Shown: positions 56,428 to 64,000 of the stretch, in pieces
Layout of the letters: the number at the start of each line of letters is the position of its first letter
How positions within the stretch are numbered: the stretch's first letter is position 1
Assembly (NCBI GenBank): GCA_031418215.1
Contig: JANOXC010000154.1
Coordinates: 1,716-65,715 of the forward strand
Reading direction: 5' to 3'
DNA length: 64,000 nucleotides
DNA from: Bacteroidota bacterium
GTDB taxonomy: Bacteria > Bacteroidota > Bacteroidia > AKYH767-A > OLB10
Notes under the pieces: model-generated
Database searches by the model: none
What the model saw: only the letters and a program-made list of their open reading frames with translations
Told to the model about the DNA's origin: nothing
Position numbers and translations under genes: made by a program

Positions 56428-57064
56428 TGGTTTCAAGATTAGTTTTTTGTTCATCAATATCCTTATTCAGGCCTGTCTGCTGCTCCTTTATTTCTTTTTG
56501 CTCTCTTTCATTTTCAGCTATCTTAACTTTCATTTTTTCAATATCAGATACAAGTCGTTCATCTTTTTTCTGCAGGTTCTGCAATTGCACCATTTTTACA
56601 GATAGCAACTTAGTGGCAATACTAATCTTGTTATCAAGCTCATTTTTTGCAATAGGTGTTGCAAAATCATTAAGTATTCGTTCCAATAATTTCGCATCGC
56701 CGGCAAAAGTTGCGGGAGCAATATAAGTACCCTGTTTTCTGAAGGCAGATGTTAACAAAACACCTCCCGGAGCCTCTTCTATTTTTGAAAAAATCTGTAA
56801 TGTATCAGGCCCAATGGCATTGATCATTGCATTTTGTCCGCTAATGCCATCTTTATTACTTTTTACTCTTGCATTATTATCTTTTAAGAAACCAACCCAT
56901 TTTTTCTCCACTGTCTTTGTTGAAGCATGTGGAATAAAAACAGCGAATGCTGAATTATAACCATCATCCATTTTCATTGAAGTATTTTCAACTGTTACCT
57001 TCTGTGCTGCTGAATCTGAAATTGCAAATGCAATAAAGAGTACGACTAAAATGTTTTTCATCAT
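56399..57064 (-). CDS. hypothetical secreted protein with C-terminal coiled coil
   Basis: Signal peptide; roughly 120-aa globular part followed by a Lys/Glu/Gln-rich coiled coil; 221 aa. Confidence 0.45.
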   Translation of the reverse strand: MMKNILVVLFIAFAISDSAAQKVTVENTSMKMDDGYNSAFAVFIPHASTKTVEKKWVGFLKDNNARVKSNKDGISGQNAMINAIGPDTLQIFSKIEEAPGGVLLTSAFRKQGTYIAPATFAGDAKLLERILNDFATPIAKNELDNKISIATKLLSVKMVQLQNLQKKDERLVSDIEKMKVKIAENEREQKEIKEQQTGLNKDIDEQKTNLETIKNMGKDLK

Positions 57065-57208
57065 TTACTTATTTTTGATATTAAACCAATTAGAACTAGT
57101 AGTTGACTTTTCACTTCTTAATTATTTTGCATTACTATTTTTAAAAAATATGCTCATGATTGCTTAGTGTTTTACAATCAACAAACAATTAATATTTCCC
57201 TAGCCTAT

Positions 57209-57574
57209 TCATTCACTTGATATTATTTTATCAATGTAATAGTTTGAATCCCCTCTCCATGGCAGATGACTTCTCTTTTGTTCATAATGAAGTGTAACAT
57301 GCTTCCCTTCAAGATTAAACAACACGCCGGCTATGCTGTCATTTTTTACAGAGAAGTAAAATTTTTCCGATGCAATGGTAGTGTTGCCGGTGGTAGTAAT
57401 GCTACTCATGATCAGCTCTCCTTCGTACGTTTTAAAGATATTACCCTTTTTCGAAAACTTTTGCAGGATGCCCGCGCGATTGCCTTCGCTATAAGTGTTA
57501 TAGTAGTTCCAATAAACAAGAAAAGCAAGTAAAACAATTAATATGATGGTTCCCCAGATTAGAAATTTCTTCAT
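57209..57574 (-). CDS. hypothetical membrane-anchored protein
   Basis: N-terminal transmembrane helix; 121 aa; no known domain. Confidence 0.4.
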   Translation of the reverse strand: MKKFLIWGTIILIVLLAFLVYWNYYNTYSEGNRAGILQKFSKKGNIFKTYEGELIMSSITTTGNTTIASEKFYFSVKNDSIAGVLFNLEGKHVTLHYEQKRSHLPWRGDSNYYIDKIISSE

Positions 57575-57668
57575 ATGTTATAACTATAAGAGTATAAAAT
57601 TAATATAAATCCAACAGATTACAAGGCCATTAATTCTTCTTAAAGTAGTATAGTTAAATAGTTTGAAA

Positions 57669-58259
57669 TTATTGATGTTTGGTTTCAGTTACACCGCCGG
57701 AAATCACAAACTTCATCATGTCGGTTCCTGAAGCATCAATGCGTGAGATATTTTCTTTAGTTACAATGACTAACTGACCGTTAAACCCATAACTGAAGGG
57801 CAGATATACAGCAATTAAATTTTGTGGCAACCCAATTTCCGTTAAATCATCTTCTGTAACAAAACCGATGCGGTGCACCTTAGGGTTTTCGTTCATGGTA
57901 ACCAATACCGGCTGCGTAAAGCGTTTTTTCTCCCCAACAAATGCTTCAATTAAATCTTTCACTGAGCCATAAATTAATTTTAGCATCGGTGTCCGCTCAA
58001 TGAATGATTCCATCATAGCAAAGACCGGATTCCTTACAAAACGGGTTCCTACATAACCAAAAAAGGTAATCGTTACCAATATAACGAGGATGCCTAGTCC
58101 GGGTAATGTGATTCCTTTTGTACCGGGAACAGGGATATCAATCTGTATCGGCAATAAACCATCCATCCATACTACAGCATTGATCACAACATAAAATGTA
58201 ACAACAATAGGTACAACGAATAATAATCCTTGCAAGAAAAAATTGACTAGCTTCTTCAT
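57669..58259 (-). CDS. DUF502-like membrane protein
   Basis: MKKLVNFFLQGLLFVVPIVVTFYV.. is typical of DUF502. The start is trimmed to MKKL, because the longer ORF would run across the upstream terminator. Confidence 0.55.
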   Translation of the reverse strand: MKKLVNFFLQGLLFVVPIVVTFYVVINAVVWMDGLLPIQIDIPVPGTKGITLPGLGILVILVTITFFGYVGTRFVRNPVFAMMESFIERTPMLKLIYGSVKDLIEAFVGEKKRFTQPVLVTMNENPKVHRIGFVTEDDLTEIGLPQNLIAVYLPFSYGFNGQLVIVTKENISRIDASGTDMMKFVISGGVTETKHQ

Positions 58260-58261
58260 TT

Positions 58262-58330
58262 TTTTTAGATTGGAGCCTGGAGTTCGGCGTTCGGAGAGGA
58301 ATTTTATTTTAAGTCTCCGAACTCCGAACA
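58262..58330 (-). terminator. long inverted-repeat terminator-like hairpin
   Basis: GGAGTTCGGCGTTCGGAGAG..CTCTCCGAACTCCGAAC inverted repeat, followed by a T run on the minus strand, downstream of the 58379-58732 gene. Confidence 0.4.
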
Positions 58331-58378
58331 AACAACTCCCGACTATTTGCAAATATCAGTGAAAAATAGAATACGAAA

Positions 58379-58732
58379 CTATTTATCCGATAAAATTTTT
58401 TCCGCTTTCTTTCCCATGCTTTTAACCACCATTTCATATGAATGATCGATCAATTCAAAAATTAGTTTCTTCTTGAGTAAACCATTTATCATTACGGTAT
58501 TCCAGTGCTTTTTATTCATGTGAAAACCGGGTGTGATTTCCTCATGATGCTCCCGCAATTCAATTGCCTTTTCAGGATCACACTTCAGGTTGATGCTGTC
58601 GGGTGCTCCCAAATCAATCAAGGCAAACATCTTACCGGCAACTTTAAAAACCAGCACAAACTCATTAAAAGGAAACGATTCCGTTACTTCCCTTTTGCTG
58701 ATGCAATGTTCGCGGATCTGCTCAACGTTCAT
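58379..58732 (-). CDS. MmcQ/YjbR family protein
   Basis: MNVEQIREHCISKREVTESFPFNEFVLVFKVAGKMFALI.. matches the YjbR family N-terminal pattern. The start is trimmed to MNVEQ. Confidence 0.55.
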   Translation of the reverse strand: MNVEQIREHCISKREVTESFPFNEFVLVFKVAGKMFALIDLGAPDSINLKCDPEKAIELREHHEEITPGFHMNKKHWNTVMINGLLKKKLIFELIDHSYEMVVKSMGKKAEKILSDK

Positions 58733-58881
58733 TTTGCAAAAATGAGGAAAAAAAGTGCTGGGTTCCGAGTACTGGGTGCTGGGTTCGATTTGAAAATTCG
58801 GCAATTAGATAATTTGAAAATTAAGTGCTATTTTTAAAAATATACTGGAACACACAGGCAAAGATTTTTTATCCCTAGTGT

Positions 58882-59049
58882 TGTCATTCAGTAGGAACCT
58901 TGTCAAATCGCACTGAAATTGCCAAGTATCTAGGGAAAAGTTAATTCAGGGCGCAGAAAGAAAATATTTTCACTACCATACTTCGACCTGCTTTTTGTGG
59001 GTTAATTACTCTCCATGCTCCAAAATGACAAGGTTCCTCCTGAATGACA
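58882..59049. repeat. 168-bp element with 24-bp terminal inverted repeats (TGTCATTCAGTAGGAACCTTGTCA / TGACAAGGTTCCTCCTGAATGACA)
   Basis: 23 of 24 bp complementary, 120-bp spacer, in the polA upstream region. Confidence 0.55.
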
Positions 59050-59085
59050 TTAGGTGTGGGTGAAAACCTTCTACAATCCGAAATA

Positions 59086-59102
59086 ATTCGTAATTCGCTG
59101 AT
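59086..59102. repeat. solo terminal inverted repeat of the MITE-like family (ATTCGTAATTCGCTGAT)
   Basis: 16 of 17 match to the right terminus of copy B. No partner left terminus nearby. Confidence 0.35.
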
Positions 59103-59147
59103 TTATTTATTTACTTTGAAGAATCATTACAGAATTTACAACTTAAA

Positions 59148-62012
59148 ATGAAAAAACTCTTTTTACTGGACGCTTTAGCGCTCATCTACCGAAGCTACTA
59201 CGCCCTCATACGAAATCCAAGAATAACCTCAACAGGTCGCAACACCAATGCACAATTCGGTTTTACAACAACGCTGGTTGACCTCATCAATAAAGAAAAG
59301 CCCACCCATATGGCTGTGTGCTTTGATACCCATGCCGCAACTGAACGTCATACCGACTTCGCTGATTACAAAGCCAATCGCGAAGAAGCACCGGAAGATT
59401 TAATACTGGCTTTGCCTGACATTAAAAAGATCATTGAAGGGTTTAACATTCCCGTTGTTGAGCTAGATGGTTTTGAAGCTGATGACATCATTGGCACACT
59501 TGCATTGGAAGCGGCAGATGTTGGTTATACTGTTTACATGGTAACGCCGGATAAAGATTACGGACAAATCGTTCGGGACAATATCTTTATATATAAACCC
59601 TCCTACCAGGGTAATGCTCCTGAAATCATGGGGCCGAAAGAAGTGTGTGCAAAATGGAATATTAATAATGTACACCAGGTAATTGATCTTTTAGGAATGA
59701 TGGGAGATGCTGTGGATAACATTCCCGGTATTAAAGGAATTGGCGAAAAGACTGCTGTTAAATTATTGTCTGAATATCATTCACTGGAAAATGTATTGGC
59801 CAATGCTGATAACATTAAAGGTTCTATGGGTGAAAAAGTACGTGCCGGAAGAGAGAATGCAATTATGTCGAAAAAACTGGCAACGATTATTACGAATGTT
59901 CCTGTAGAATTTCACGAAGAGAATTTCCGTTTGAAAGAAGCGAATAAGGAAAGTTTATCAGAAGTATTTGCAGAACTGGAATTTAAAACATTAGGCAAAC
60001 GGATTTTAGGGGATGCTTTTAATGCTTTCGCAGGAAATGGGAATGATGCAAGAGCCGATAACCGGCAACGTGATTTATTTGGAAATGTGATTGAATCAAA
60101 AGGCGCCACTGTTGTTGAACGCAAAGAAAACAATACCACAGAAGCCGCAGATCAAAGCAATTTGGAAACGCAGTTGGGGATGACGGCTGAACACAACATT
60201 GAAAACACGCCGCATGAATATATATTGGTGAATGATGGCAATGCTGTTGATGCTTTAATCAATACATTGAAGAAAGTCAAAGAAATTTGTTTTGATACAG
60301 AAACCACAGGGAAAGATGCCAACGACATGGAAATTGTTGGTATGAGCTTTTCCATTGAACCGCATAAGGGATGGTATGTTCCCTTATCTGCTGATCAAAA
60401 ATTAGCACAACGTAAAATTGATCAGTTTAAAATCCTGTTTGATAATCCCGACATCCTTTGGATTGGACATAATATAAAATATGATTTGTTAGTGATGAAG
60501 TGGTACAACATAGAGATCAAAGGCAAGATTACCGATACCATGCTGGCACACTACCTCATTGATCCCGATGGAAGAAGAGGAATGGATTTGCTGAGCACGC
60601 AATATCTGCACTATGAACCGGTAAGCATTGAAACGCTCATTGGTAAGAAAGGAAAGAATCAGGGCAGCATGCGCGATGCTGAACTGGAAATGATAAAAGA
60701 ATATGCTGCAGAAGATGCAGATGTTACGTTACAACTGAGTAAAGTATTTGCGCCAATGTTGAAAGAGCGCGGTGTGGAAGAAGTGTATGACAAAGTGGAA
60801 AATCCCTTGGTGCCGGTTTTAGCGGATATGGAATTTGAAGGAATTAAAGTGGATGTTGATTTTTTGAATGCTTACTCAAAGGAATTGGAAAAAGAAGCCG
60901 GAGAAAGTGAAGCGAGCGTTTATAAACAAGCAGGTGTGAAATTTAATTTGGCTTCCCCAAAACAATTGGGTGAGGTACTATTTGATATTTTAAAGATTGA
61001 TGCTAAAGCAAAAAAAACCAAGACAGGGCAGTATGCAACAGGTGAAGATGTATTATTAAAACTAGCACACCAACATAAAATTGTAGATGACATACTTGCC
61101 TTCCGTGAGCTTACGAAATTAAAATCTACTTATGTTGATGCACTCCCTTTAATGATTAACCGAAAGACAGGTCGCGTACACACTTCCTACAACCAGGCCA
61201 TTGCTGTTACAGGACGATTAAGTTCCAACAACCCCAATTTGCAAAACATCCCGGTGCGTACTGAGCGTGGGCGTGAAATACGAAAAGCATTTATTCCACG
61301 CGACAAAGATCATGTATTACTATCTGCCGACTATTCGCAGATTGAATTGCGCATCGTTGCAGCCATGAGTGGTGATGAAAACATGTGTCAGGCATTTCGT
61401 GATCATAAAGACATTCACACAGCAACAGCGGCACGTATTTACAAAATTGAAGAAAGTGAGGTGACCAAAGAAATGCGTTACAAAGCGAAGAGTGTAAACT
61501 TTGGTATCATATACGGACAAAGTGCATTTGGCCTCGCAGAAAACATTGGTGTTTCCCGCACAGAAGCAAAAGAACTCATCGACAATTACTGGAAGGAATA
61601 TGGCGCCATCAAAACCTTTATGGATTTGCAGGTAAATTTTGCAAGAGAGAATGGTTATGTACAAACCTTAATGGGTAGAAAAAGATGGCTGCGCGATATA
61701 CTCTCTTCAAATGCTGTAGTACGCGGGTTCGCCGAGCGCAATGCCATTAACATGCCCATACAGGGAACAGCTGCCGACATGATTAAGCTGGCCATGATTC
61801 GCATACAGAAAGAACTAAAAAAACAACAGCTGCAATCCAAAATGATTTTACAGGTGCATGATGAATTAGTGTTTGATGTACATCGCAGTGAAGTAGAAAA
61901 AATAAAACCCGTCATCCTTGACGGTATGCAGCATGCGCTTGAATTACCAAATGAAGTACCAACCGATGCTGAAGTGGGTGTTGGGGAGATTTGGTTGGTG
62001 GCGAATTTATAA
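59148..62012 (+). CDS. polA: DNA polymerase I
   Basis: 5'-3' exonuclease N-terminus, 3'-5' exonuclease and polymerase motifs (RRxxKxxNFGxxYG, QVHDELV); 954 aa. Unusual C-terminus ..GVGEIWLVANL. Confidence 0.95.
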   Translation: MKKLFLLDALALIYRSYYALIRNPRITSTGRNTNAQFGFTTTLVDLINKEKPTHMAVCFDTHAATERHTDFADYKANREEAPEDLILALPDIKKIIEGFNIPVVELDGFEADDIIGTLALEAADVGYTVYMVTPDKDYGQIVRDNIFIYKPSYQGNAPEIMGPKEVCAKWNINNVHQVIDLLGMMGDAVDNIPGIKGIGEKTAVKLLSEYHSLENVLANADNIKGSMGEKVRAGRENAIMSKKLATIITNVPVEFHEENFRLKEANKESLSEVFAELEFKTLGKRILGDAFNAFAGNGNDARADNRQRDLFGNVIESKGATVVERKENNTTEAADQSNLETQLGMTAEHNIENTPHEYILVNDGNAVDALINTLKKVKEICFDTETTGKDANDMEIVGMSFSIEPHKGWYVPLSADQKLAQRKIDQFKILFDNPDILWIGHNIKYDLLVMKWYNIEIKGKITDTMLAHYLIDPDGRRGMDLLSTQYLHYEPVSIETLIGKKGKNQGSMRDAELEMIKEYAAEDADVTLQLSKVFAPMLKERGVEEVYDKVENPLVPVLADMEFEGIKVDVDFLNAYSKELEKEAGESEASVYKQAGVKFNLASPKQLGEVLFDILKIDAKAKKTKTGQYATGEDVLLKLAHQHKIVDDILAFRELTKLKSTYVDALPLMINRKTGRVHTSYNQAIAVTGRLSSNNPNLQNIPVRTERGREIRKAFIPRDKDHVLLSADYSQIELRIVAAMSGDENMCQAFRDHKDIHTATAARIYKIEESEVTKEMRYKAKSVNFGIIYGQSAFGLAENIGVSRTEAKELIDNYWKEYGAIKTFMDLQVNFARENGYVQTLMGRKRWLRDILSSNAVVRGFAERNAINMPIQGTAADMIKLAMIRIQKELKKQQLQSKMILQVHDELVFDVHRSEVEKIKPVILDGMQHALELPNEVPTDAEVGVGEIWLVANL

Positions 62013-62100
62013 TAATATTACTTTTCCTTTCTATAGTTTGGTAGTAACAAACGAAAACGACTTGTTTTTAGTCTCATAAATAACTAAATTTGTAATTGAA

Positions 62101-62403
62101 ATGAAAGAGATAAATCTGCATATTGACCAAATTCAACAACTTTGTGCCTCTAACAAAGTTAAGTCTCTTTTTGCATTCGGCTCTGTTACCAATAATAAAT
62201 TTAATGCTGACAGTGATATTGATTTGGTGGTAGATATTGCAGAAAACGATCCGCTCTCTTATGCAGAAAGTTATTTTAATTTAAAATTACAGCTCGAACA
62301 ACTTTTCAAACGCCATATTGACCTTTTGGAGCAGAAAGCAATAAAAAACGCTTTCCTGAAATCACAAATTGATCAGACCAAAATTCTCCTTTATGGAAAA
62401 TGA
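62101..62403 (+). CDS. MNT-type nucleotidyltransferase (antitoxin-like partner of HepT)
   Basis: GSVTNNKFNADSDIDLVVD minimal nucleotidyltransferase motif; 100 aa. Overlaps the HepT start. Confidence 0.7.
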   Translation: MKEINLHIDQIQQLCASNKVKSLFAFGSVTNNKFNADSDIDLVVDIAENDPLSYAESYFNLKLQLEQLFKRHIDLLEQKAIKNAFLKSQIDQTKILLYGK

Positions 62404-62734
62404 AATTAAGGTTTGGTTGACGGATATTAAACAAGCCATTGAGGAGATCAATCAATTTCTTCCCGAGAGGAAAGACTTTAATGAATTTCAAAAAGATCTT
62501 AAAACTAAATGAGCAATTGAAAGAAACATTGAGATTATTGGAGAAGCTGTAAACAGGATTTTAAAAGCCAACCCTGAAATTAAAATTACTCACGCCAGGA
62601 AAATTGTTGATACAAGGAATAGAATCAGCCACGGATACGACAGTGTGTCTTCAGAAATTATTTGGTCAATTGTGGTTCGCGACTTATCTGACTTAGAAAC
62701 TGAAATCAAGCAGTTGCTTGAATCTGATTTGTAA
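62393..62734 (+). pseudogene. HepT (DUF86) toxin gene interrupted by an in-frame TGA
   Basis: Start overlaps the MNT stop. Frame reads ..DLKTK-TGA(62510-62512)-AIERNIEIIGEAVNR..RNRISHGYD (Rx4HxY motif) and is continuous apart from the single stop. A TGG (Trp) is expected at that position. Confidence 0.6.
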
Positions 62735-62753
62735 TGTAAATTTCTTGACTTAA

Positions 62754-62875
62754 ATCGCAGCGAAATAGAAAAAATAAAACTCCTCGACGGCATGCAGCAG
62801 GCGCTTGAATTACCACATGGAGTACCAACAGATGCTGAGGTAGGTGTTGGGGAGAATTGGTTGGAAGCGCATTGA
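62754..62875 (+). repeat. diverged direct duplicate of the polA 3' end (last ~125 bp of the coding sequence)
   Basis: About 88% identical to 61883-62012, with a 6-bp indel. Still in frame, encoding ..LDGMQQALELPHGVPTDAEVGVGENWLEAH*. Confidence 0.75.
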
Positions 62876-62933
62876 AATGTATAGGCAATAAAATAGCGGT
62901 TATTTATTAGTTAGTGGAAATAACTGAAAAAAT

Positions 62934-63200
62934 CTAAGGGAATAATTTATATATATCCTTGCGATGAATTATTCTAGCAAAAATAACTTTCTGGTCTTCG
63001 AAAAAAAAACCAACTCGATAATCTCCAATACGAATTCGATACGCTGACTTATGCCCTACAAGTTTCTTGATTTTAGGAATATCATTAAGTCTTTCTGCTT
63101 TTTCAATTTGCCCAATTAATTTAACGAGACTCGCTTTAGTAGATTTCTGATTAATTGAATCTAGGTCTCTAGAAAAAATGCTTAAAAACTCAATTTTCAT
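62934..63200 (-). CDS. RelE/ParE family type II toxin
   Basis: 88 aa; ..HKSAYRIRIGDYRVGFFFEDQKVIFARIIHRKDIYK pattern of RelE/ParE toxins. 4-nt overlap with the upstream small gene. Confidence 0.6.
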   Translation of the reverse strand: MKIEFLSIFSRDLDSINQKSTKASLVKLIGQIEKAERLNDIPKIKKLVGHKSAYRIRIGDYRVGFFFEDQKVIFARIIHRKDIYKLFP

Positions 63201-63397
63201 TTAGAATTGAGCTTTTGCATAATACTTTCTTTGGTTGCCTTTTTAGTCTTGTCGACTGATTTAAGAAGTTTGGATAAACCAATATCTTCCAACTCCTCTT
63301 TCGACATCGTGGCAGAGGAAATACCTAGCTTCCTTAATAATTCACTTACGAATTTGAATTCAGTTGCAGTTCTGGGTCTTATTACGACAGCTTTCAT
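63197..63397 (-). CDS. putative antitoxin
   Basis: 66-aa gene immediately upstream of the toxin and overlapping it. No domain recognised. Confidence 0.45.
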   Translation of the reverse strand: MKAVVIRPRTATEFKFVSELLRKLGISSATMSKEELEDIGLSKLLKSVDKTKKATKESIMQKLNSK

Positions 63398-63678
63398 ATC
63401 GCAAATATAATGAAAAAAGGCACTTCCGCTAACACCAAGCAGCCGCCATACAGCATAACTCCCTATCTGTGCAAGACTTCAGTCTTGTGACTTTAAATTT
63501 ATTTCTAGAGGATATCATGAAAAGAAAACAGATCAATATTCAATAATTGTTTCTCATATGATAATTATTTTTGATCATCAATTCAATTACTGATTTTTAG
63601 GCACAAGTTTGACTTAACAAAACTCCTCAACGGCATCATTAAAAACCGTATTTTTCAGCAATGAATTAGTATCATTGA

Positions 63679-64000
63679 ATGATGAATAAAAAGAGTTTAT
63701 CTGAAAGAGACATCTGTACCAAGTTTATCACGCCTGCCATTGAAAAAGCCGGATGGGATAAGCAGACACAATTATTGGAGGAGGTTTCTTTTACTGATGG
63801 CAAAATTTATGTCAAGGGTAAACTAACCGCTCGCGGACAAGCTAAAAGAGCTGACTATATTTTATACTATAAAGCAAATATCCCCATTGCAATAGTTGAA
63901 GCAAAGGACAATAACCATACTGTTCGATCAGGAATACAGCAGGCTCTTGATTATGCCAAAATTCTTGATATCCCATCAGTTTTTAGTAGCAATGGCGATG
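63679..64000 (+). CDS. hsdR: type I restriction enzyme R subunit, partial (5' end)
   Basis: MMNKKSLSERDICTKFITPAIEKAGWD..EEVSFTDGKI..RGQAKRADYILYYKANIPIAIVEAKD is the canonical HsdR N-terminus. The gene runs off the end of the window. Confidence 0.8.
   Translation, partial: MMNKKSLSERDICTKFITPAIEKAGWDKQTQLLEEVSFTDGKIYVKGKLTARGQAKRADYILYYKANIPIAIVEAKDNNHTVRSGIQQALDYAKILDIPSVFSSNGD

Follow-up and report, generated by a model that had tools for sequence, protein, structure and literature searches.

A polA-anchored array of integrase-less toxin-antitoxin cassettes in a Chitinophagaceae lineage

The 3' end of polA, the gene for DNA polymerase I, is followed in one Bacteroidota genome by small toxin-antitoxin (TA) operons and by a detached copy of the gene end itself. 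The stretch of DNA analyzed here, referred to as the window, comprises 64,000 nucleotides of contig JANOXC010000154.1 (assembly GCA_031418215.1). According to the open reading frame (ORF) list, polA occupies 59148-62012 and encodes 954 amino acids (aa) as it stands in the window. The gene lies on the plus strand, as does every gene, repeat copy and motif of the window given below except those of the ParE unit. Over its last 300 aa, PolA shares 77% aa identity with Ferruginibacter and other Chitinophagaceae metagenome-assembled genomes (MAGs). The final ~135 nt of the gene (61873-62009) are present again as a direct repeat at 62745-62875 (84-87% identity, blastn E 1.5e-30). Copy 1, delimited at 61873-62009 by alignments and a repeat search, is the functional polA 3' end. 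Copy 2 (62745-62875) is a detached polA-end relic with a degenerate left half and an intact right half that closes with ..VGVGENWLEAH*. The copies align in a 93-nt block of 87% identity and a 41-nt block of 83% identity, with one 6-bp indel. The 730 bp between them consist of an 88-nt leader, an MNT gene and an overlapping HepT gene, and the G+C content of this cassette is ~0.33 compared with ~0.40 in polA. A sequence-only reading of the window had reported the repeated polA end, the MNT and HepT genes enclosed by it and the in-frame terminus of the downstream copy. All three observations stand, the second on Pfam matches, and the true repeat boundaries lie ~10 nt wider than noted.

The cassette opens with its leader (62013-62100), which is homologous in the window and in three contigs described below (L088, L089 and L172). 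Within the leader, TAAATTTG at 62085-62092 matches TAnnTTTG, a motif that from established knowledge we take to be the -7 box of Bacteroidetes promoters. A sigma-70 promoter scan performed at or below chance and was uninformative. The first gene (62101-62403) encodes a 100-aa MNT/MntA-type nucleotidyltransferase antitoxin, identified by Pfam (PF18765, Polbeta, 2.9e-14; PF01909, NTP_transf_2, 1.5e-11), PADLOC (PDC-S09, 3.7e-26) and NCBIfam MntA (3.3e-12, under the family cutoff, as are the NCBIfam equivalog scores in general). The second (62393-62735) is a pseudogene of HepT, a HEPN RNase toxin, which matches PF01934 at 9.5e-22 after stop repair. An in-frame TGA at 62510-62512, missing from the sequence-only reading, precedes the RNRISH (Rx4H) catalytic motif. 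This nonsense codon is fixed in every contig of the population, where MNT is intact; orthologues carry CGA or AGA (Arg) at the same position, and the HepT frame is intact in L088 and L089. Compared with the Type VII MntA/HepT arrangement, the window has an MNT gene beside a HepT gene with the Rx4-6H motif and lacks an intact toxin frame. Some Logan gene calls give a 113-aa HepT, presumably because the TGA was read through. Copy 2 also continues the HepT reading frame (62733-62875) and begins 9 nt past the HepT TAA stop, so that read-through would add a PolA tail to HepT; the shared frame is probably a coincidence.

The duplication is reproduced well beyond the window. Exact look-up of the MNT and ParE proteins recovered 16 further contigs from at least 10 ENA/Logan samples, independently assembled, 99-99.9% identical to the window and colinear with it across one or both junctions. 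Because these contigs agree, the duplication is not a mis-assembly or collapse, a worry that the sequence-only reading had raised. Copy 1 of the window nevertheless differs from them at its very end. The attached copy terminates in ..GEIWLVANL*, an ending seen in the window sequence alone, whereas 9/9 independent contigs that cover 61990-62045 (L081-L087, L183 and L186) read GAG AAT TGG TTG GAG GCG CAT TGA, that is, ..ENWLEAH*. In the population, the polA stop codon is the TGA at 62007-62009, as translated from contig L082. The odd ending arises from 8 private changes in 56 bp (61990, 61999, 62004, 62008, 62010, 62032, 62037 and 62045), at which the 9/9 other contigs have the canonical bases. 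All eight are transversions, 7 of them to T, and the next ~1.9 kb contains 0-1 sites that differ from the contigs.

Among related PolA C-termini, His is the last residue in 153/158 and NWLEAH closes 117/158. The ..GEIWLVANL* terminus is a sequencing or assembly error, or else a lesion private to one strain, and not a property of the element. Exact look-up of the window PolA gave no match, since its C-terminus is private. Confined to one assembly, this terminus bears no biological reading without read support. The sequence-only reading had built its headline on the contrast, describing the detached copy as the canonical one and the attached copy as non-canonical, and had offered a foreign, less canonical PolA C-terminus as the alternative. 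Neither view is supported, given that the attached end is fully canonical (..GENWLEAH*) in all nine population contigs. A separate tract within polA (61050-61073) contains 7 transitions in 24 bp that are common to L081, L082 and L086, one of which produces V635I in L082. In contrast to the transversion cluster at 61990-62045, this tract looks like natural allelic exchange by short import from another allele.

The differences between the two copies are informative about their origin. When the population version of copy 1 is compared with copy 2, the right-hand 17 codons (VPTDAEVGVGENWLEAH) contain 4 differing sites, all synonymous (4 synonymous to 0 nonsynonymous). The left-hand 25 codons contain 4 synonymous and 7 nonsynonymous differences, and copy 2 also lacks two codons. 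The same right-hand segment shows 6 synonymous and 0 nonsynonymous differences in the copy pair of L014, a Chitinophagaceae MAG, and 5 and 0 between copies 1 and 2 of L088. Pooled over the three pairs, 15 synonymous and 0 nonsynonymous differences fall on 40.5 synonymous and 142.5 nonsynonymous sites (binomial P=1.5e-10), with synonymous differences per synonymous site (pS) of 0.32-0.46. Because the right-hand differences are all synonymous (15:0), the copies are diverged, once-functional polA ends of different lineages and not the product of duplication in situ. An in-place spare copy left to decay would show the opposite bias, with mostly nonsynonymous changes. Two claims of the sequence-only reading gain from this comparison: that the copies are diverged and not a recent tandem duplication, and that an element inserted into the 3' end of polA with its own replacement end, the copies being of different origin.

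Duplication of the polA end in situ with decay of the spare copy, or an outright assembly artefact, would have drawn some credit from the damaged look of the attached copy in the window and from the tendency of short-read assemblers to break at repeats, most contigs here being 1-5 kb long. Both are contradicted by the data. The right-hand differences are synonymous in 15/15 cases at the divergence just given, 16 independent contigs from at least 10 samples share the same junctions, and the cargo differs between units. Such an origin is scarcely credible.

The real asymmetry between the copies lies within copy 2, which is degenerate in its left half and intact in its right half. This pattern points to a crossover about halfway along the repeat, near 61977-61999. 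The left half of copy 1 equals the family consensus at all 5 informative residues. Copy 1 would then be a chimera, native to the left of ~61977 and cassette-borne to the right of it; the native end would correspond to the left of copy 1 joined to the right of copy 2, and the incoming end to the left of copy 2 joined to the right of copy 1. A cassette-free relative with 92% aa identity, L176, offers 4 synonymous sites for comparison. Three of them, counted from the left, read as in copy 1 and the fourth as in copy 2, which places the exchange between 61978 and 61999 on four sites only. No cassette lies within 133 nt of polA in L176.

Two-copy polA ends are rare among related genes. The survey comprised the 80 GTDB species representatives whose polA genes are the most similar and 80 listed JGI metagenome loci, mostly distant relatives. 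Among the matches listed, 157/158 other polA loci have a single polA end of the ENWLxAH type, in line with the expectation of the sequence-only reading for cassette-free relatives, and no relative was seen with two polA-end copies and no cassette between them. The geometry of the window recurs in 1/80 GTDB representatives, and no second polA-end copy was found in the other 79 or in the 80 JGI loci listed. The exception is L014, a MAG of a different genus, in which a 68-aa ORF and a 153-aa DUF6036-like nucleotidyltransferase lie between 66-nt polA-end repeats (91% identical). A terminator hairpin follows the distal copy.

Arrays came to light at close relatives of the window MNT (82-95% identical). 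L088 reads polA end, a first MNT-HepT operon (#1), a 70-nt relic that has lost its stop, a second operon (#2) and a relic of at least 130 nt, for a total of three polA-end copies and two cassettes. MNT-HepT#2 of L088 is the orthologue of the window cassette. Three contigs from three other samples (L172, L173 and L174) carry #1, a relic of 63-75 nt and #2. L175 has a short relic, #2 and the deletion-type long relic of the window with 41 nt beyond it, and continues into different DNA from the window-equivalent of 62917. L089 contains HepT#1, a 140-nt relic with the 6-bp deletion of copy 2, #2 and then only 'CATTGA', after which it is homologous to window 63455-63612, hairpin included. Comparison with L089 indicates that the window has an extra unit, made up of copy 2 and the ParE-antitoxin pair. 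The proteins of #1 and #2 are 32% and 38% identical and thus represent distinct systems, which rules out tandem duplication of one MNT-HepT unit. The leader is homologous at every occurrence of MNT-HepT#2, so that the polA-end mimic moves together with the cassette, on the side proximal to polA. The association with polA is limited to a close clade, since MNT relatives of 78% identity (L090 and L091) are not adjacent to polA.

Two of these contigs show further rearrangement. In L175 (154-790), an MNT half that matches the L088/L172 type is joined to a HepT half, TGA included, that is identical to that of the window; the cassette is either a recombinant or a chimeric metagenome contig. In L089 (2-160), a peptidyl carrier protein (PCP)-like fragment (..DDFFELGGNSL..) is fused in frame to the end of an MNT (..QIEREIIYV*) upstream of HepT#1, and this locus is rearranged.

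An alignment of twelve polA-end copies defines the borders of the repeat. The right border is fixed at the stop codon, and the left borders vary (window-equivalents ~61853, 61866, 61873, 61938 and 61944). The short copies begin at 61938 in L088 and L172 and at 61944 in L014, so that two unrelated cassettes (#1 and that of L014) have borders 6 nt apart. The stretch 61944-61978 is the only one common to every polA-end copy seen. The longest identical block between the window copies is the 23-nt 61977-61999 (GGTGTTGGGGAGAATTGGTTGGA), in a region that encodes part of ..AEVGVGENWL... On this alignment, 61944-61999 is the candidate recombination zone, and a site-specific enzyme or RecA would plausibly act at 61977-61999. 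Copy 3 of L088 leaves polA homology at 61978-61981 and enters foreign DNA. In reverse complement, the first 36 nt of L183 carry a different polA allele (..PLPNDVPANAEIG..) up to 61976 (61941-61976), and the contig is from there 99.9% identical to the window array; either the whole array was recently transferred to another host, or a k=31 assembly produced a chimera. This third relic of L088 (1907-2010) breaks after GAAGTTGG into four ~24-nt tandem repeats (TTCCGCGSNAAANTGACCCAC-like), reminiscent of the several binding sites for a transposase or integrase at a mobile-element terminus. Searches of the window, the other loci and IMG/VR viral contigs returned no copy of this 24-nt motif.

The most fitting description of the locus is an array of integrase-less TA cassettes anchored at polA, a variant of the integrative elements of gene ends with a new target, and it very probably arose through serial insertion of cassettes that restore polA by bringing a foreign polA end. 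Under this reading, the polA 3' end in this Chitinophagaceae lineage would act as a docking site for very small mobile cassettes without a recombinase. Each unit would consist of one 0.6-0.8-kb TA operon with its own promoter box, carrying on its polA-proximal side the last ~35-70 nt of polA through the stop codon and often a further polA-like arm on its distal side. A circular cassette, an intermediate that we infer together with its enzyme, would recombine with the chromosomal polA end through a crossover in the ..AEVGVGENWL.. stretch (~61977-61999). The cassette-borne end would complete polA and leave this essential gene intact, and the former end would be displaced downstream as an untranslated relic. 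Repeated rounds would generate cassette arrays with polA-end relics between them. The order in the window would accordingly be polA, MNT-HepT with its toxin inactivated, the relic, ParE-antitoxin, the original downstream region and the type I restriction-modification (R-M) system. The favored agent is a site-specific recombinase acting in trans, provided by the host or by another element, because one site received different cargos in two lineages, the borders and breakpoints are clustered, and each unit is compact. Confidence in this agent as such falls slightly on the doubtful side of the balance, and polA-restoring insertion together with a trans-acting recombinase stands evenly poised.

A number of observations weigh against enzymatic insertion of this kind. 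The cassettes, the 64-kb window and the further 3.6 kb covered by L178 yielded no recombinase gene, which extends to neighboring DNA the remark of the sequence-only reading that no integrase was visible. In 158 relatives, a crude regex and motif search of the 6 kb downstream of polA detected no integrase. Neither an empty site nor a circular junction was seen in the population of the window among the contigs on record, and, of 15 ParE-bearing contigs, those listed that reach upstream of copy 2 all carry MNT-HepT. The L183 junction amounts to 36 nt of evidence and possibly to a k=31 chimera. The presumed crossover block is the longest identical stretch, which homologous recombination would pick too. 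Relic lengths range over ~6, 66, 75, 130, 140 and at least 150 nt, and the deletion-type left arm lies to the right of #2 in the window and L175 and to the left of #2 in L089; a single fixed attP per cassette predicts neither variable relics nor a shifting left arm. Finally, no more than ~6 nt of polA remain at two right-hand junctions (the 'CATTGA' of L089 and ~63450 of the window), and the left border of the ParE unit lies 41 nt past the polA stop, outside polA.

The variable relics, the unstable left arms, the two ~6-nt junctions and the ParE border 41 nt out keep a recombinase-independent route alive. Here, a foreign polA 3' end and a TA operon would circularize illegitimately and integrate by one RecA crossover of the Campbell type in the polA end; homology-facilitated illegitimate recombination would give the same product, and unequal homologous exchange between relics would reshuffle the arrays. 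Illegitimate joins predict relic left borders as scattered as those observed (-6 to -150 nt), and homology would end at the stop codon since the intergenic DNA of donor and recipient is not conserved. The mimics behave as genuine polA ends of other lineages (0 nonsynonymous differences at pS 0.32-0.46), left arms are not stably bound to one cassette, the inferred crossover falls within the longest identical block and no recombinase was found, all of which agrees with this route. However, the copies share only 84-91% identity across 66-135 nt and their identical blocks measure 23-39 nt, which makes a poor RecA substrate. In two distant lineages, at least 4 different cargos have reached the end of the same gene, and the relic borders of two unrelated cassettes fall 6 nt apart. 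Moreover, a double crossover leaves no duplicated end, and the rare single-crossover route must recur many times. Recombination by the cell alone is the less likely explanation, but a strong competitor.

The content of the units bears on whether they could be remnants of something larger. Four distinct units are available, each a single operon with 9-90 nt of flank and with a Bacteroidetes-type -7 box a few bases before its first gene. Only MNT, HepT, ParE and an antitoxin accompany the polA-end repeats, followed by hsdR, fic and hsdM. No unit contains a fragment of an integrase, transfer or phage gene, and a crude motif search of the window returned no tyrosine-recombinase motif. In IMG/VR, the polA-end mimic gave one match, the ordinary polA end of a high-GC organism, and otherwise zero; BLAST against plasmids and phages returned nothing relevant. 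A motif search covering 6-10 kb downstream in 158 polA loci showed no recombinase-bearing element at the same site. A Pfam summary of 130 ORFs downstream of polA shows the 25 most frequent families and does not settle the integrase point.

Against these results stands the idea that the cassettes are decayed remnants, resembling cis-mobilizable elements (CIMEs), of large integrative elements or prophages whose own integrase targeted the polA 3' end, internal deletions having spared only the two att sites and a TA operon. [quoted passage not shown] TA operons withstand loss better than any other part of an element, and a type I R-M and Fic island lies just downstream. Compared with CIMEs and pseudo-SCC elements (after staphylococcal cassette chromosome, SCC), the array has att-type direct repeats, no recombination or transfer genes and tandem units that share the repeat. 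However, four units that are each exactly one operon with such narrow flanks, the lack of any integrase, transfer or phage gene fragment in them, the lack of an integrase-bearing element at polA in 158 related loci (crude search) and the lack of matches in phage, plasmid and viral collections speak against decay. The compact single-operon units fit primary cassettes better than random deletion remnants, and descent by decay is improbable.

Known classes of small cassettes were considered as well. Hairpins of the attC kind were rejected after folding of eight copies or strands, with DNA fold z-scores of -0.60 to +1.17. An integron cassette does not apply either, as there is no intI or attI, polA lies directly upstream and the window has no recombinase motif. 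Membership in Xer dif modules was set aside because the boundaries are 66-150-nt direct repeats of coding sequence; no inverted copy was found, and no formal dif-motif scan was made. A more far-reaching and doubtful proposal is that the units landing at the end of polA, an essential and universally conserved gene, constitute a hitherto undescribed, minimal type of cassette, in which a single defence or TA operon has the working last codons of polA as its sole mobility determinant and is moved by a host-encoded recombinase or by the recombination machinery of the cell itself. If this proposal were true, the chromosome would in effect carry a cassette array resembling that of an integron, with no integron parts.

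Integrons share with the polA array the arrangement of one- or two-gene cassettes, often TA, that do not encode their own mover, and the 66-140-nt boundaries fall in the attC size range. Unlike integrons, the array has a host-gene coding boundary without a significant hairpin, cassettes with their own promoters and no intI/attI platform. The sites of dif modules occur in alternating orientation. Modules of this type on Acinetobacter plasmids are small, of single function, often TA, and moved by the host recombinase between 28-bp XerC/XerD boundary sites (PMC6449649). Unlike them, the polA units are bounded by direct repeats of a chromosomal gene end.

Closer parallels exist among elements that enter gene ends. 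Composite SCC islands and pseudo-SCC elements at rlmH (orfX) of staphylococci form tandem arrays with repeats that contain the terminal codons of the gene, and some SCC units lack recombinase genes and rely on Ccr in trans. The polA array resembles them in its tandem, recombinase-less units at the 3' end of one housekeeping gene. SCC repeats measure ~15-20 nt, the units 3-60 kb, and ccr is found in neighboring units, whereas the repeats described here span 66-150 nt and no such recombinase is visible. In E. coli, e14 and phage 21 supply icd with a diverged functional replacement end and leave the old end as the icdC pseudogene (PMC13626634). The icd/icdC repeat exceeds 100 nt with mainly silent or conservative differences, according to that source and Hill et al. 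1989 as cited there. As in e14/icd, the polA cassettes enter at the 3' end of a conserved protein gene, supply a replacement end and leave a relic at the distal junction. Both junctions bear the direct repeat of the target 3' end in the window, L014, L088 and L172-L175, the replacement end is foreign (15 synonymous to 0 nonsynonymous differences), and an intact canonical attached copy is found in 9/9 population contigs, though not in the window sequence; no integrase is encoded by the element. Unlike e14, a 15-kb prophage with an integrase, each unit here is a 0.7-kb single operon without a recombinase, the units are tandem and the target is polA.

CIMEs related to ICESt1 and ICESt3 at fda, together with tandem IMEs, are integrase-less, keep attL and attR and accumulate in tandem at the 3' end of the target (PMC5704250). 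The polA units are likewise integrase-less and tandem at the target gene 3' end. CIMEs are by definition decay products of ICEs or IMEs, and the polA units show no trace of such ancestry. No cognate ICE is known for them. The ssrA islands of Dehalococcoides have repeats of ~20 nt and an integrase per island. They are serial islands at one gene end in which the end repeat bounds every unit (PMC3146451). Their target is an RNA gene; that of the present array is the protein gene polA. No literature report of polA as an attachment site was found.

If the units are primary mobile units, the smallest defence or addiction modules would spread and accumulate beside an essential gene without an enzyme of their own, with a functional copy of the gene end as passport. 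In that case, polA would join the protein genes that serve as attachment sites. The locus would moreover provide a sequence-defined test system for integrase-less cassette movement in Bacteroidota, with 66-140-nt boundaries, 0.7-kb units and several array variants.

Downstream of copy 2, the 41 nt at 62876-62916 are shared with L175, whose blastn alignment ends at 62916, and the cargo is strain-specific from there. The next unit is encoded on the minus strand and consists of a ParE/RelE-family toxin (62934-63200; Pfam ParE_toxin 1.1e-6) and a putative 66-aa antitoxin (63197-63397). A -7 box of its own (TATATTTG, minus strand) lies just upstream of the antitoxin start (63397). L089 lacks the ParE unit (62934-63397), and L175 has other DNA in its place. 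A terminator scan identified a terminator-like hairpin (GCAAGACTTCAGTCTTGTG) with a T-rich tail at 63466-63496, of which L089 contains two copies. It probably marks the original downstream region of polA, because in L089 it stands directly after '..CATTGA'. At 63613-63636, AACAAAACTCCTCAACGGCAT matches copy 2 at 19/21 positions with the deletion-type sequence (repeat family D6) and sits exactly where the L089 homology ends. This truncated fragment is possibly a third polA-end copy, though so short a match could be due to chance.

The window closes with the 5' part of hsdR (63679-64000; Pfam HSDR_N) of a type I R-M system. Contig L178 extends the locus 3.6 kb beyond the window and contains hsdR (799 aa), a Fic gene and hsdM; the Fic-domain gene between hsdR and hsdM (L178 730-1524) matches PADLOC SoFic at 5.5e-23. 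A small defence island therefore follows polA. An attempt to extend the locus through HsdR homologues gave a best match of 85% identity, from a different organism.

Two minor observations concern polA surroundings elsewhere. In L177 (23-1269), an unrelated high-GC contig flagged as viral, polA (..GENWLEAH*) is followed directly by an opposite-strand 138-aa ORF that looked HicA-like by eye. Directly 5' of polA in the window, the stretch 58873-59058 contains a 24-nt inverted repeat (58882-58905 and 59026-59049, 96% complementary) around 120 nt. An Rfam scan of 57000-64000 returned no RNA family, and the inverted-repeat stretch occurs once in the window and matches nothing in Rfam. A 191-nt stretch at this position folds with -60.6 kcal/mol (z -5.0 against shuffles), and the inverted-repeat stretch could be an element like a miniature inverted-repeat transposable element (MITE) or a structured RNA.

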